NCBI GenBank assembly: GCA_036169815.1
Contig: JAVHOA010000120.1
Span: forward strand, 1,781 to 65,780
Reading direction: 5' to 3'
Source: Sulfurimonadaceae bacterium
Lineage (GTDB): Bacteria > Campylobacterota > Campylobacteria > Campylobacterales > Sulfurimonadaceae
DNA length: 64,000 bases
Part shown: in pieces, positions 3,068 through 62,726 of the stretch
Numbering within the stretch: position 1 is the first letter of the stretch
Layout of the letters: every line of letters begins with the position of its first letter
The notes under the pieces: generated by a model
Seen by the model: the letters and a program-made list of their open reading frames with translations, nothing else
What the model was told of the DNA's origin: nothing
Databases searched by the model: none
Made by a program: the position numbers and the translations under genes

Positions 3068-3115
3068 AAAAAGGCTTACATGTAAAGAAAAAAAGGCTTA
3101 CATGTAAAGAAAAAA
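3068..3115 (-). terminator. Two tandem 22-bp units AAAAAGGCTTACATGTAAAGAA; probable rho-independent terminator of rnpB, formed by pairing of two palindrome copies
   Basis: CTTACATGTAAAG at 3075..3087 and 3097..3109 (period 22). On the minus strand the two copies can pair as a hairpin and each is followed by a T-run. The site lies immediately 3' of rnpB. Confidence 0.5.
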
Positions 3116-3116
3116 T

Positions 3117-3437
3117 TAGGTACAACGGTAAGCTGGGTTCTGTTATAGTGATATTAATCTACTTTGATCTTTACAGATCAACTCTAGCGAAACAGTAGCA
3201 ATGTAAGACGCTAACCATCTGTTTCTTGCTACCAGGTTGGGTTTACAAGCTACTTATATTACTATAAATACTGGTGGTCTCTTACACCGCCGTTTCACCC
3301 TTACCATCAAAGATGGCGGTTTATTTTCTGTTGCACTTTCCCTCGTATTACTACGGCCATTCGTTAAATGGAACCCTGTCTTACGGTAGCCCAGACTTTC
3401 CTCTTGAAAAAATTCAAGCATCAACTTGTTGTACCTG
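3117..3437 (-). ncRNA. rnpB: RNase P RNA, bacterial type A
   Basis: The minus-strand reading contains the universally conserved blocks GAGGAAAGUCUGGGC, GGGAAAGUGCAACAGAAA, AAGGGUGAAACGGCGGUGUAAGAGACCACC and ACAGAACCCAGCUUAC. P1 can form between GGUACAAC (5') and GUUGUACC (3'). Ends are approximate (+/-5 nt). Confidence 0.85.
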
Positions 3438-3487
3438 CGATATGGTAACCAAAGAGAGCTAAGATTTTGATTTGATAGAGATTTTTT

Positions 3488-4807
3488 TTAAGATCGAAAC
3501 GCTTCAATAGCTTTTTTCGCGGCTTCTTTGTGCACAACACAAGGCTTTGGATAATTTTTTAAACTTGCCTCTAGAAGATAGGCTTCATTATGCAAATCTT
3601 TTGCGCTTACATGTAAGAGTTGCGGAAGCCATTTTTTGATGTATATGGCATCTTTATCAAATTTTTTTGCTTGTAAATAGGGATTAAAAACTCTAAAATA
3701 GGGTTGAGGATCCACTCCTGTTCCAGCGCTCCATTGCCATGAAAGTATGTTAGAAGCCGCATCATAATCGAGCAGGTACAAACGAAAAAACTGCTCACCC
3801 CATTGCCAAGGAAGTAAGAGGTCTTTTGTAAAAAAAGAAGCAACAATCATCCGCACGCGGTTGTGCATTTTACCTGTTTGTAGTAGTTCATTGATTCCTG
3901 CATCAACGATCGGCACGCCTGTTTTTGCTTCACAAAAAAGCGCAAATTTAGCTTCATCTTCTACACCATTGAAACTATAAGTAAAGTTTTTTTCTGCAAG
4001 AGAAGGAAAATAGTAGAGTAAAGAGGCATAAAACTCACGAAAAACGAGCTGTCTAAAAAATGGCTCGGTATCGATTCCCTCTTTTTTCCTGTGTACAAGC
4101 CAACGCAAAAGCTGTTTAATACCCAAGGTGCCAAAACGTAGATGCACGCTAAGGGCGGAGGTGTCAGTCGTTGCAATGGTGTCACGATCACTTTGATATT
4201 GCCTTACATGTAAGGCAAATTTATCTAAAAGTGTCTCAAGTCGCTCTACTCCATGTGCTTGATATTGAAAGCCGATATCCTCTAAAGAAAGTGTGTTATA
4301 TGAAAATGGAATCAGGCTATTTTGCGCACTAAACTCACTTTTTGCTAAGTGTGAAGAGGAAAAAATTGTTTTAGATTTCTTGTAAAATGGGGTAAAAACT
4401 CTGTAAGGTGAGCCATCATCTTTTAAAATCTCATCAGGTTGAAAAATGTAGGTTCCATACAGATACTCAAACTCTACAAGGCGTGAGATTTCAAGATCTC
4501 TTTGTCGTGCATAGGCATCATAATCTCCGCATGCCACGATTTTATCAATGGATGTAGTCTTTAAAAGAGAGCTGATAATCTCTGTAGGTTTGCCATAAAA
4601 TAGGGCTAGGTTAAGCCCTTTTGCTTGCAAATCTACTTTGAGTTTACACACTGCTTCATAGATAAAACTTACACGTCTGTCGTCACAAGGAAGATTTTTG
4701 AGGATATTTTCATCAAAGATAAAAATAGGCAGAAGTTCACCCTTACATGTAAGCAACATATTATCTTCTACACGAAGATCACGCCGAAACCAGAGGATTT
4801 TTGTCAT
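3488..4807 (-). CDS. phr: Deoxyribodipyrimidine photolyase (class I CPD photolyase)
   Basis: 439 aa. N-terminal ILWFRRDLRVEDN; C-terminal FAD-binding signature TGxPIVDAGINELxxTGxMHNRVRMIVASF...DYDAASNILSWQWSAGTG. Confidence 0.9.
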   Translation of the reverse strand: MTKILWFRRDLRVEDNMLLTCKGELLPIFIFDENILKNLPCDDRRVSFIYEAVCKLKVDLQAKGLNLALFYGKPTEIISSLLKTTSIDKIVACGDYDAYARQRDLEISRLVEFEYLYGTYIFQPDEILKDDGSPYRVFTPFYKKSKTIFSSSHLAKSEFSAQNSLIPFSYNTLSLEDIGFQYQAHGVERLETLLDKFALHVRQYQSDRDTIATTDTSALSVHLRFGTLGIKQLLRWLVHRKKEGIDTEPFFRQLVFREFYASLLYYFPSLAEKNFTYSFNGVEDEAKFALFCEAKTGVPIVDAGINELLQTGKMHNRVRMIVASFFTKDLLLPWQWGEQFFRLYLLDYDAASNILSWQWSAGTGVDPQPYFRVFNPYLQAKKFDKDAIYIKKWLPQLLHVSAKDLHNEAYLLEASLKNYPKPCVVHKEAAKKAIEAFRS

Positions 4808-5751
4808 TTTGAACCATGCAGGCTTGAGCGCAAAGCCAACTCTTTAGGATAGGGAGCTAAAAATGTTTGCTCTAACAAATAGCTTGTGTTATATTTTTTT
4901 GCATAAAGGTTGATGGTACTCAGGGGAACGATAAGCGGTACAATTGCTTGCATGTACTCCTCGATTTGCGTATGGAGCATCTCTTTTTCCACTTTTAAGA
5001 GCTCTTTTTTAAAAAATCCTGCCATATGTTCAAGCACATTTTTATCTCGTTTGCGTGAGCTTTTTTTTGCGATGGCAGTTTTAAATTTCTCTTCATAAGA
5101 GAGCAGAATTTCATTAAAAGAAAAAGATTCGTGATTACCCACAATTTTACCGAGTTCACGATAGAGCTTTTCATCTTTGGCTTGCAACATAAACTTGTTT
5201 TTTGTATGAAACTCTACAAGTTTTTTCATATTCGGAGCATTTTTTTTGAGATTTTCAAAAGATTTATATGCAAATATTTGCATAATAAAATTTTCTCTTA
5301 ACCAATCATCCACAAGCCTGCCCTCCTCTTCCATGGGGAGATGAGGAAATTGTTTACGACAAAGGGAGACAAAAATTCCATCGCTCTTTCCCTCAGAAAA
5401 TCCATTTGGCAGATAGGTTTTCGAACTTCCAAGCCCGCAACTTGGAGATTTTGACTTAAAAATAATGCCACAAAGATCTTCACTTGCAATCTTCTGGAGT
5501 TCTTGATTTGAAAATCCAAGCAGATGCTCTGTCAAATCTGCTCCATCTTTGTTGGAAATAATATGGTTTTGCTCACCATCTCGCACCATTCGTATGGATG
5601 GACGCGGCGTTCCAAACGCTAGCGCTTCTGGACAAAAAGGGACATATGAACAATAAGCAGAAAGCTGATCTGTGATGAAACGATCTCTTTTATGCCCACC
5701 GTCATAGCGCACTTTTTCACCAAGCAAACATGCCGAGACTGCTAACTTCAT
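4804..5751 (-). CDS. DUF523/DUF1722 (YbgA-like) family protein, co-transcribed with photolyase
   Basis: 315 aa, starting MKLAVSACLLGEKVRYDGGHK (DUF523-type N-terminus). 4-nt overlap with phr. A ybgA-like gene upstream of phr is a known conserved pairing (E. coli ybgA-phr). Confidence 0.7.
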   Translation of the reverse strand: MKLAVSACLLGEKVRYDGGHKRDRFITDQLSAYCSYVPFCPEALAFGTPRPSIRMVRDGEQNHIISNKDGADLTEHLLGFSNQELQKIASEDLCGIIFKSKSPSCGLGSSKTYLPNGFSEGKSDGIFVSLCRKQFPHLPMEEEGRLVDDWLRENFIMQIFAYKSFENLKKNAPNMKKLVEFHTKNKFMLQAKDEKLYRELGKIVGNHESFSFNEILLSYEEKFKTAIAKKSSRKRDKNVLEHMAGFFKKELLKVEKEMLHTQIEEYMQAIVPLIVPLSTINLYAKKYNTSYLLEQTFLAPYPKELALRSSLHGSK

Positions 5752-61536: not shown

Positions 61537-61599
61537 CTTTTAATCCTATCTTTTTTTGTTGTTGCAATTATAATATATTGAGTTTAAAAGAAGCTCGAT

Positions 61600-61869
61600 T
61601 TACTCCTCATCATCCTCGTTTTGTGCAGATAAAATATCTTCATAAATCTCTTTACACTCATCATCTTCGATCTCTCCACATTCGATATCAACAAGAATAT
61701 CTTTGAGATCATCACGAAATTCGATGAGTTCATCCAACTCCTCTTTAACCTCCTCAATTGATTCGTTTTTCTTATCGGCTATAAGTTCATAAAGATCATC
61801 CATTCTCTCTTCAATATCTGGTAATACACTCTCTTTAATCAGCACTTCTAACTTTTGTGAATATGACAT
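61600..61869 (-). CDS. Hypothetical, extremely acidic 89-aa protein
   Basis: ORF MSYSQKLEVLIKES...EDILSAQNEDDEE with roughly 40 percent Asp+Glu and a predicted helical character. No family recognised. Confidence 0.45.
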   Translation of the reverse strand: MSYSQKLEVLIKESVLPDIEERMDDLYELIADKKNESIEEVKEELDELIEFRDDLKDILVDIECGEIEDDECKEIYEDILSAQNEDDEE

Positions 61870-61914
61870 TTTTTATCCTTGTAATTTTAGTGACAAAATC
61901 ATACCAAATAGTTT

Positions 61915-61926
61915 GTTACATGTAAG
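61915..61926. repeat. Single intergenic copy of the palindrome motif (GTTACATGTAAG)
   Basis: Lies in the divergent promoter region between the acidic-protein gene and the cinA-like gene. A further core copy (61986..61993) overlaps the cinA-like ATG 61989. Confidence 0.8.
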
Positions 61927-61988
61927 CCATATAAAACGATATTGCTACTATAATCATTGACTTTTATAAAGCAACAAAGGATTTCTAC

Positions 61989-62726
61989 ATGTACAACTTT
62001 TATGCCGTAATTATTGGGACAGAAATACTCAATGCAAGACGAGAGGATAAACATTTTTGTTTTATTCGCAATCTTTTAAACTCCTATGGGCACACTCTTT
62101 TTTCAAGCTTTATTATTAAAGATGACAAGCAACTCATAAGAGATGTGTATGAGCTTGTCAAAAAAGATGACAAAGCGATCCTTTTTAGTTTTGGAGGTAT
62201 CGGTTCTACGCCCGATGATCTGACTCGCCAAATAGCTGCAGAGGTGTTTACATGTAAGCCTCTAGAAAGAAATAAGAAGTTTGAGAATGATATTATTGAG
62301 CGATTTCAAGAGGAAGCTTATCCTTACCGTATTCAGATGGCTGACCTTCCGCAAAATGCCAATCTTATCAAAAATCCCATCAACAATATGTCCGCTTTTG
62401 AACTTGAACATCGATACTTTTTTGTTCCAGGATTTCCCGAAATGTCACACCCAATGCTCCAAGAGTGTGTAGAAAAATATTTTTCCACTTCGACAAAAAA
62501 AATTAGAAAAACACTCTACGCCTCTACAAGTGAAAATACGCTCATCCCACTTATGGAGGCAATCCCAGCAGATATGGAACTCTCTTCTTTGCCTATTATT
62601 GGAGAAAATGGACCTGAAGTGGAGTTATCTCTCAACTATCATGATGAAGCGATTGTAAGCCGAGAATTTGAAAAATTTATGGAGTTTTTAGATGCAAAAA
62701 ATATTGCGTTTAGACTCATCCATTAA
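61989..62726 (+). CDS. CinA-like / MoCF-biosynthesis (molybdopterin-binding) domain protein
   Basis: 245 aa. AVIIGTEIL...FSFGGIGSTPDDLT motif of the MoaB/MogA/CinA N-terminal domain. No PncC deamidase domain. Confidence 0.7.
   Translation: MYNFYAVIIGTEILNARREDKHFCFIRNLLNSYGHTLFSSFIIKDDKQLIRDVYELVKKDDKAILFSFGGIGSTPDDLTRQIAAEVFTCKPLERNKKFENDIIERFQEEAYPYRIQMADLPQNANLIKNPINNMSAFELEHRYFFVPGFPEMSHPMLQECVEKYFSTSTKKIRKTLYASTSENTLIPLMEAIPADMELSSLPIIGENGPEVELSLNYHDEAIVSREFEKFMEFLDAKNIAFRLIH

Follow-up and report, generated by a model that had tools for sequence, protein, structure and literature searches.

The DNA considered here, called the window throughout, is a 64,000-nucleotide stretch from a Sulfurimonadaceae bacterium (assembly GCA_036169815.1, contig JAVHOA010000120.1, forward-strand positions 1,781 to 65,780), and coordinates are counted from its first base. 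A short palindrome, CTTACATGTAAG, with the 8-bp core TACATGTA, recurs within and between its genes and is the subject of this analysis. Its gene content marks the window as part of a Campylobacterota chromosome and includes 2-oxoglutarate oxidoreductase, sucCD, fumarase and malate dehydrogenase, together with a YhdP-like gene, secA, ftsK, dTDP-rhamnose genes, queC, a recN-like gene, tex, aspartyl-tRNA synthetase, rnpB and one tRNA-Leu. SucC is 89–91% identical, among the matches listed, to proteins of Sulfurimonas and Sulfurovum metagenome-assembled genomes (MAGs). Tex places the window in a clade sister to Sulfurimonas proper, whose sole named member is a MAG labelled 'Thiovulaceae bacterium'; Tex identity and a neighbour-joining tree serve as a rough proxy for phylogeny. 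The host is a sulfur-oxidising, Sulfurimonas-like bacterium.

Abundance, form and coding imprint of the palindrome

Thirteen exact copies of CTTACATGTAAG, a perfect palindrome, lie in the window. The 10-bp level of extension, TTACATGTAA, is found 26 times and the core 40 times, which corresponds to 625 per Mb or about one copy per 1.6 kb. ACATGT hexamers number 47; all but seven sit inside TACATGTA, and those seven, against about 16–19 expected, represent no enrichment. The GC content of the window is 37.7%. Dinucleotide-preserving shuffles predict 0.00 copies of CTTACATGTAAG and 0.97 of TACATGTA (maximum 3), so that the observed-to-expected ratio (O/E) of the core is 41 against shuffles; it is 51 against an order-3 Markov model. 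Counted on both strands under Markov models of order 0–3, the core is observed 80 times against 1.6–4.2 expected and the 12-mer 26 times against 0.005–0.014. An unbiased ranking of all 8-mers of the window puts TACATGTA at rank 1, and ranks 1–17 are all overlapping sub-words of the motif. The top 8-mer in some 60 control loci of 12–21 kb usually reaches an O/E of 4–15, at most 22. The shuffles, the Markov models and the control loci therefore establish that the enrichment is real and extreme. A window-specific or assembly artefact is ruled out by the presence of the same motif in independent NCBI, ENA, JGI and Logan assemblies.

These counts bear out a first-pass annotation of the same DNA, made by eye. 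All 13 of its 12-mers were verified, its 27 additional core starts are exact, and its totals of about 40 cores and about 47 hexamers, some 40 of them in the extended motif, agree with the full count. Its estimates of the enrichment (core about 20-fold, 12-mer more than 1000-fold) are if anything conservative. It had named a genome-wide O/E near 1 under a higher-order Markov model as the mark of a counting artefact, and the order-3 value for the window lies far from that.

An all-or-none core is set between graded flanks. Copies one base off the 12-mer deviate solely at positions 1, 2, 11 or 12 in 13 of 13 cases, and two-off variants solely at the outer positions in 12 of 15; the other three carry a core mismatch, where 3.9 are expected by chance. 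One-off variants of the 8-bp core itself are at chance level (32 observed, 26 expected). The bases next to the 13 exact 12-mers are G or C in 24 of 26 cases, a preference already noticed in the first-pass annotation together with a perfect 16-mer palindrome, CGCTTACATGTAAGCG, at 56689–56704; both observations hold. The consensus of the coding copies is SSCT-TACATGTA-AGSS, about 16 bp long and bordered on each side by about 6 bp of AT-enriched, G-poor DNA, and the graded flank preference reaches plus or minus 8 bp. Outside the 16 bp or so, the flanks of the 40 copies are unrelated. Read from the sequence, the core is a fully alternating pyrimidine–purine octamer. Because the motif is a perfect palindrome, a polar signal of the Chi or KOPS (FtsK orienting polar sequence) type, which is non-palindromic and replichore-skewed, is ruled out.

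Coding sequence holds 28 of the 40 copies (70%), and the other 12 are intergenic. Only the two stop-free reading frames are used: 20 copies read xxC TTA CAT GTA AGx, giving L-H-V, and eight read CTT ACA TGT AAG, giving L/F/V-T-C-K. The third frame would read TAA. The imprint on the proteins is strong, L-H-V, T-C-K and L-T-C being the three most enriched tripeptides of the window: L-H-V occurs 20 times against 2.65 expected (7.5-fold), T-C-K is enriched 11.8-fold and L-T-C 6.4-fold. Seventeen of the 20 L-H-V tripeptides are spelled TTACATGTA (TTA CAT GTA), where codon usage predicts about 4%. A force acting at the DNA level overrides coding, and proteins are reshaped by the motif. An artefact of codon usage or peptide preference is ruled out by this spelling and by the fact that the highest density is intergenic.

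Outside genes, the 12 copies fall in 4.3 kb, a density of 2.8 per kb and six times that in genes (0.47 per kb). Most belong to tandem arrays of a 21–22 bp unit made of an A-run and the palindrome; there are two such arrays, and both are true tandem duplications of the unit. One (3068–3115) lies directly 3′ of rnpB (3113–3437, minus strand) and has 2.2 identical 22-bp units, AAAAAGGCTTACATGTAAAGAA, with cores at 3077 and 3099 and 12-mers at 3075–3086 and 3097–3108, both CTTACATGTAAA. The other (22326–22462) lies between convergent genes at 21811–22326 (plus) and 22472–25090 (minus). It has 6.3 units of 21 bp with the consensus AAAAAAGCTTTACATGTAAGT and five intact cores, at 22336, 22357, 22402 (in the exact 12-mer 22400–22411), 22424 and 22445; it also has a decayed unit at about 22370–22390, where CTAGATTTATAAGT replaces CTTTACATGTAAGT, and no other copy in the window is clearly degenerate. 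Neighbouring copies pair into stems because the motif is its own complement. The two copies beside rnpB give an 11-bp stem with a U-run behind it on the minus strand (dG −14.1, z −4.6), and those of the larger array pair mutually (dG −27 to −31, z −5.5 to −5.9), with one terminator-like match. A pair on the plus strand at 55451–55497, 40 bp past the stop codon of a porin-like gene (53927–55414), combines CTTACATGTAGA at 55457–55468 with an exact 12-mer at 55480–55491; its stem measures about 17+4 bp, and the folded segment 55415–55510 reaches dG −38.2 and z −8.8. A single copy folds weakly, the best 16-mer reaching only −7.3 kcal/mol. Hairpins require two copies and therefore appear to be a secondary use; on these folding predictions, we read the terminator-like structures as something that paired copies may have come to provide.

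Origin, retention and distribution of the sites

Codon alignment of tex from 12 lineages reveals how sites arise. They were created without insertions or deletions, one to four adjacent residues being replaced. LLKVKGL became LLHVKGL in the whole window clade (TTTACATGTAAG at 51384–51395) and, independently, in the distant locus L101, a K to H replacement that is convergent in two separate motif-bearing lineages. SSSKELLF was changed to SDLHVSLF in locus L087 and to SNLHVRLF in the window, which alone also has VLHVGEY for VLSLNQY; REVHAELK became RELHVELK in Candidatus Sulfurimonas marisnigri. The other copies in the window's tex gene (50870–52996, minus) are CCTACATGTAAC at 50946–50957, the window-specific site of VLHVGEY, and CCTACATGTAAG at 51207–51218, in the peptide L-H-V-G. 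In the fumarase gene (11337–12728, minus), the conserved peptide TALHVA contains GCTACATGTAAG at 12280–12291. The spelling TTA CAT GTA is found only in the window species; motif-free relatives use CTG CAT GTA, CTT CAC GTT or TTG CAC GTT.

Once present, sites persist. When the window is compared with three relatives at about 77% DNA identity, the core is intact at 60–73% of alignable sites, as against about 15% of all 8-mers, and sites are retained about four times better between species than ordinary 8-mers. About six lineage-specific losses were examined and bear no C-to-T signature of 5-methylcytosine (m5C) deamination, an uninformative result given how few they are.

A survey of relatives, proposed in the first-pass annotation, shows a distribution that is clade-wide in one lineage and patchy elsewhere, with flank dialects. 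In the window clade, each of the seven members sampled (Tex 77–85% identical) carries 4.5–7.1 cores per 10 kb at an O/E of 40–50, with the extension TTACATGTAA. Ca. S. marisnigri (complete 2.49-Mb genome CP054493.1; Tex 71%) has 5.0 cores per 10 kb at an O/E of 30. Its flank dialect is TCTACATGTAGA, with the extension (T)CTACATGTAG(A), and at the orthologous L-H-V-G site of Tex its leucine codon is CTA where the window has TTA. The highest density, 8.1 cores per 10 kb, is that of L101 (Tex 64%, 40% GC), in the dialect CTTTACATGTAAAG; the same dialect occurs in a MAG labelled Sulfurospirillum (L017). In locus L091 it is mainly the bare hexamer that is enriched, with 23 ACATGT against about 6 expected and variable flanks. 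TACATGTA is essentially absent from the other Sulfurimonas-like loci at 69–74% Tex identity and from all more distant Campylobacterota sampled. CATG and ACATGT are generally under-represented across the phylum, CATG mildly so in nearly all Campylobacterota loci sampled, and CATG-specific restriction–modification systems are therefore taken to be common there. Two Campylobacter-like loci, L024 and L027, contain 11 CATG against 60 expected and 17 against 55, and ACATGT is absent from both.

Sister lineages carry other hyper-abundant words. The non-palindromic AAACGCAG has 15 dispersed copies in L007 (1–21167), eight in L099 (1–11886) and 20 in L100 (1–16483), all from a Sulfurimonas lineage without TACATGTA. 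Pooled, these are 43 sites in 49.5 kb against 1–3 expected, with an orientation of about 1:1 (roughly 10:10 within one 16-kb locus) and no flank consensus, and AAACGCAG looks like a second motif of the classical DNA uptake sequence (DUS) kind. ATGGCGTC(A), likewise non-palindromic, has nine dispersed copies in 16 kb of a single locus, L098 (1–16003), at an O/E of about 38. CACATGCC, with six copies in 13 kb of a single locus, L096 (1–13413), may be a third lineage-specific word. Judged from their sequences, such differing words in sister lineages would fit the pattern expected of a recognition system whose specificity switches. One further candidate, ACATCCCA in L106, was discarded as a 75-bp tandem repeat within one gene.

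Individual sites and related observations

The densest coding cluster is in the DNA photolyase gene (3488–4807, minus), with three exact 12-mers in 1.3 kb: 3606–3617 and 4203–4214 in frame L-H-V, and 4742–4753 in frame L-T-C-K. Three copies are also present in tex and in the YhdP-like gene (14746–17901, plus), the latter with an exact 12-mer at 16777–16788 (L-T-C-K), GTTACATGTAAG at 17010–17021 (L-H-V) and CTTACATGTAGA at 17526–17537, where the window has G-L-H-V and relatives have G-L-F-V or G-L-F-A. Copies are found in the recN-like gene, tex and ftsK as well. DUS are reported to favour genome-maintenance genes, and the resemblance here is anecdotal.

Between ftsK and the recN-like gene, all copies in genes lie in minus-strand coding sequences. 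FtsK (25193–27514) has CTTACATGTAGG at 27039–27050 in frame L-H-V. A sugar-nucleotide dehydratase gene (30068–31117) has CTTACATGTAAA at 30713–30724 (F-T-C-K), an RmlD-like gene (31087–32043) an exact 12-mer at 31681–31692 (L-T-C-K), and a dTDP-sugar epimerase gene (31946–32524) another at 32226–32237 (L-H-V). An epimerase/dehydratase gene (33415–34446) contains both CTTACATGTACA (33947–33958) and ATTACATGTAAG (34112–34123). These are followed by TCTACATGTAAG at 35327–35338 in a YgjP-like gene (34699–35364), an exact 12-mer at 35850–35861 in queC (35357–36034), another at 37155–37166 (L-T-C-K) in a GMC oxidoreductase gene (36039–37709), and GCTACATGTAAG at 39683–39694 in a TerC/DUF475 membrane-protein gene (39007–39978). 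For three sites the fate in the related loci L087, L088 and L089 can be read. TGTACATGTAAG at 42521–42532, in an acetyltransferase gene (42244–42705), and AGTACATGTAAG at 46813–46824, in an SLT/LysM transglycosylase gene (46146–47366), are kept in all three; at the exact 12-mer 44396–44407, in a Hydrolase_3 (KdsC-like) gene (44309–44803), the core is kept in L087 and L088 and mutated in L089. The RecN-like (SMC_N) coding sequence (48392–49930) has an exact 12-mer at 48963–48974.

The remaining sites are on the right of the window, apart from TCTACATGTATA at 9158–9169, which is intergenic between a ferredoxin-like open reading frame (ORF; 8598–9008) and a sucD-like one (9261–10136). The perfect 16-mer, with its exact 12-mer at 56691–56702, lies in a plus-strand ORF (56371–56778). 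GTTACATGTAAA at 58222–58233 (V-T-C-K) is in an ABC ATPase gene (57439–58314, plus) and AGTACATGTAAG recurs at 60500–60511 in an adenylate-kinase-family gene (60153–60725, plus). GTTACATGTAAG at 61915–61926 is outside ORFs of at least 100 amino acids, TCTACATGTACA at 61984–61995 is at the start of a MoCF_biosynth (CinA-like) ORF (61989–62726), and TTTACATGTAAG at 62247–62258 lies within the same ORF in frame F-T-C-K.

Several long ORFs have no copy: 19107–21812 (secA), 22472–25090, 27571–29979, 40027–41811 (penicillin-binding protein) and 58354–60153 (aspartyl-tRNA synthetase). Beside rnpB, two adjacent ORFs of the tyrosine recombinase (phage integrase) family occupy 312–2925 and probably represent an integrated element or its edge. 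This segment of about 3 kb contains no TACATGTA; the chance of none at the average density is about 0.15, and its absence from the segment is therefore not significant on its own.

Viral contigs scanned with two 14-mers gave mostly single chance matches. Two filamentous-phage-like IMG/VR contigs, L296 (1–11868, from an isolate genome; Zot, secretin and a Mutator-family transposase) and L303 (1–10374), have seven and four TACATGTA cores in the dialect CTTTACATGTAAAG, and may combine host and phage DNA. All seven cores of L296 are in its first 6.1 kb, with none in the 5.5 kb that carries the transposase and morphogenesis genes. An unrelated viral contig, L245, has five or six TTGACACTTTACATGTAAAGTTGACA-like repeats (350–560 and 4355–4368), clustered within 200 bp; this looks like an operator array that shares the core by chance, not genome-wide enrichment. 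Among the control loci, the palindrome GTGATCAC is about 8–10-fold enriched in Rhodobacteraceae loci L084, L076 and L085 (12–16 both-strand counts, that is 6–8 sites per 21 kb), and ACACGCTG/AGCGTGTC about 20-fold in the Paracoccus locus L049.

Explanations and known systems

A sharp word about once per 1.6 kb, created against protein constraint, retained between species, varied in dialects and paired as hairpins is the signature of a self-DNA tag. The explanation tentatively preferred here, held with a little less than even confidence, is that the palindrome is such a tag, similar to the highly iterated palindrome HIP1 or to DUS, maintained by a bias of transformation-linked uptake or recombination and possibly dependent on methylation. 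(i) Some component of natural transformation, acting in DNA binding or uptake, in an early recombination step, or in both, would recognise the duplex core symmetrically. (ii) A methyl mark on the internal CATG/ACATGT might be required, as for HIP1 and for RAATTY in Campylobacter jejuni. (iii) Fragments bearing the tag would be taken up or recombined preferentially, and each transformation would spread tag alleles, a form of molecular drive. (iv) Copies would build up at positions where L-H-V or (L/F/V)-T-C-K is acceptable to the protein, and with least hindrance between genes. (v) Adjacent intergenic copies would pair and could be co-opted as terminator-like hairpins. The link to uptake or recombination, the protein that reads the motif and any methylation of it are what we infer.

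Several points tell against this explanation. All classical uptake sequences known to us are non-palindromic, and an all-or-none 8-bp core looks more like restriction/modification specificity than like a graded uptake preference. The patchy distribution, with the motif absent at 69–74% Tex identity and present at 64%, would be explained by a mobile determinant, for instance a methyltransferase, no less well than by a receptor inherited vertically, and a repair bias restoring the motif would likewise keep sites conserved. Neither a competence gene nor a DNA methyltransferase lies in the window or the fetched loci, the DNA sampled being 20–64 kb per genome. The literature search found no demonstration of natural transformation in the clade, and no experiment or gene connects the palindrome with competence. 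On these data an uptake signal cannot be told apart from a palindrome driven by methylation or repair.

The main rival, unlikely in our estimate, is Elhai's model for HIP: the palindrome would be a by-product of methylation-directed or sequence-specific mismatch repair with no role in uptake, an ACATGT/CATG methyltransferase and a repair nuclease turning near-matches into the palindrome and restoring mutated copies. It accounts for a palindrome with a type-II-like hexamer at its centre, for the all-or-none core and for deviations at outer positions only, as reported for HIP1 (PMC4390886). The bare hexamer enriched in L091 points the same way; the patchy distribution and the shared dialect of distant lineages fit a mobile methyltransferase, and the phylum-wide shortage of CATG implies that CATG-specific restriction–modification systems are common. 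The size of the effect is nevertheless difficult to reconcile with it. In Escherichia coli, repair bias by Vsr with Dcm shifts word frequencies by tens of percent, not by the 50-fold seen here. Repair would also leave the graded flanks to plus or minus 8 bp and their AT-rich shoulders unexplained; the few lineage-specific losses lack the deamination signature, the hyper-abundant 8-mers of sister lineages are non-palindromic, and the sequence sampled contains no methyltransferase.

Distinctly less probable is an array of binding sites for an abundant dimeric DNA-binding protein, nucleoid-associated or chromosome-organising. Selection on chromosome structure was proposed for HIP1 by Xu et al. 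(PMC5861425), and a symmetric site of 12–16 bp with an alternating, deformable pyrimidine–purine core and AT-rich flanks would suit such a protein, as would the conservation of sites between species and the phasing of intergenic copies, with their A-tracts, at 21–22 bp or two helical turns. Yet no nucleoid protein is known to require a precise 8-mer at 1.6-kb intervals or to impose amino-acid replacements on housekeeping proteins, and close relatives entirely without the motif would be unexpected for a core architectural function. The hairpins formed past genes (on the 3′ side of rnpB, between the two convergent genes and behind the porin gene; z −4.6 to −8.8, some with U-runs) might instead indicate a terminator or RNA-stability element scattered into genes by chance or hitch-hiking. 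This is very improbable: 28 of the 40 copies are in coding sequence far from gene ends, a single copy folds too weakly without a partner, and codon and peptide bias would go unexplained. Descent of the copies from a miniature mobile element (MITE- or REP-like), or from a repeat family amplified recently, is scarcely credible. The two duplicated arrays and the two tyrosine recombinases are what speaks for it; the flanks are unrelated beyond about 16 bp, the copies are in frame, orthologous alignments reveal substitutions and not insertions, and the recombinase segment itself has no copy. A mobile-element origin is effectively refuted by the Tex codon alignments, and the alternative raised in the first-pass annotation, that copies are confined to one repeat family of mobile origin, falls with it.

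A wider proposal, possible but doubtful, extends the self-DNA tag to the family: Sulfurimonadaceae may use fast-switching, lineage-specific self-recognition tags to gate natural transformation, some palindromic (CTTACATGTAAG, TCTACATGTAGA, CTTTACATGTAAAG) and some not (AAACGCAG, ATGGCGTC). Hyper-abundant self-DNA tags are, to our knowledge, restricted to two proteobacterial families, with DUS and the uptake signal sequence (USS), and to cyanobacteria, with HIP1. Their origin, specificity switching and reading are long-standing questions, in the case of HIP1 for 30 years. No description of the present motif was found in a search of openly accessible papers, which did not cover REBASE; the one Sulfurimonas methylome retrieved (S. 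denitrificans, m5C motifs only) lists CGCG, CCNGG, GATC and CCGG and no ACATGT. The motif adds a case of the HIP/DUS kind in a phylum where none had been described. The case offers a sharp core, dialects at orthologous codons, convergent amino-acid replacements and different motifs in sister lineages, and the complete genome of Ca. S. marisnigri makes the mechanism directly testable in a carrier. If these are self-recognition tags, uptake-sequence biology would have arisen independently a third time, following Neisseriaceae and Pasteurellaceae and beside cyanobacterial HIP1, and its shifts in specificity could be followed within one genus. The motif could aid the binning and assignment of Sulfurimonas-like MAGs and flag horizontally acquired DNA. 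It might also open these environmentally important sulfur oxidisers to genetic manipulation, as the addition of methylated HIP1 sites has done for cyanobacteria.

Other short repeats offer partial likenesses. In C. jejuni, DNA is taken up only if it is methylated at RAATTY (PMC10046745), and this CtsM-dependent motif resembles the palindrome in phylum, in being short and symmetric, and in that it discriminates self-DNA at uptake; the central CATG/ACATGT is, from its sequence, a plausible methylation target. RAATTY, unlike the palindrome, is a degenerate 6-mer, occurs often in AT-rich DNA in any case, and has not been reported to be driven to hyper-abundance or to reshape proteins. Repetitive extragenic palindromic (REP) sequences, bacterial interspersed mosaic elements (BIME) and enterobacterial repetitive intergenic consensus (ERIC) sequences are likewise palindromic and form hairpins past genes. 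They differ in their length of 20–130 bp, in being imperfect, in lying strictly outside genes and in spreading through duplication or transposition (REP-associated tyrosine transposases, RAYT), whereas 70% of the copies here are intragenic and made by substitution, duplication being confined to the two small arrays.

The DUS of Neisseriaceae (e.g. AT-GCCGTCTGAA) and the USS of Pasteurellaceae (AAGTGCGGT plus AT-rich flanks) leave an imprint on tripeptide frequencies (PMC2817400). The palindrome shares with them a density of about one copy per 1–2 kb, a core with graded extension and AT-rich flanks, restriction to tolerated frames with the same kind of proteome imprint, an intergenic excess with pairs that fold into terminator-like hairpins, and family-level dialects of a hyper-abundant word around a core common to relatives. 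DUS and USS are non-palindromic, and it is solely as inverted pairs that they form hairpins; the occurrence of copies in both orientations, typical of them, has no meaning for a palindrome. Their uptake bias, and for DUS the ComP receptor, a minor pilin, are proven experimentally, and the motif described here is known from its sequence alone.

HIP1 of cyanobacteria (GCGATCGC), where alternate HIPs also occur, is a palindromic octamer present at 300–2700 per Mb with an O/E of 15–300; it deviates at outer positions, has variants that keep the inner hexamer and occupies conserved sites (PMC4390886, PMC5861425). The present motif has the same form: a palindromic octamer core, here at 625 per Mb and an O/E of 41–51, extended palindromically to 10–16 bp, with deviations outermost and lineage variants that keep the inner hexamer. 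It is likewise dispersed among unrelated flanks in coding and non-coding DNA, at sites conserved between species. The HIP class also has a cognate DNA methyltransferase, usually an orphan, for the inner sequence; the window and the fetched loci contain none. It is not HIP1 proper, since the sequence is the different, AT-rich TACATGTA and the host is a Sulfurimonas-like member of the Campylobacterota, not a cyanobacterium. The motif is also confined to parts of one family, whose sister lineages have non-palindromic motifs. HIP1 has now been proposed as an uptake sequence (bioRxiv 10.1101/2024.09.10.611283; 10.64898/2026.06.24.733823), and its methylated form enhances natural transformation by as much as 100-fold (bioRxiv 10.1101/2024.09.10.611283), so that HIP1 and DUS/USS are drawing together as precedents. 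The first-pass annotation had likened the palindrome to DUS/USS and to HIP1, noting copies within conserved genes and pairs at the 3′ ends of genes, and the descriptive part of that comparison emerges strengthened. By form the closest known system is HIP1, and by genomic behaviour DUS and USS are equally close.

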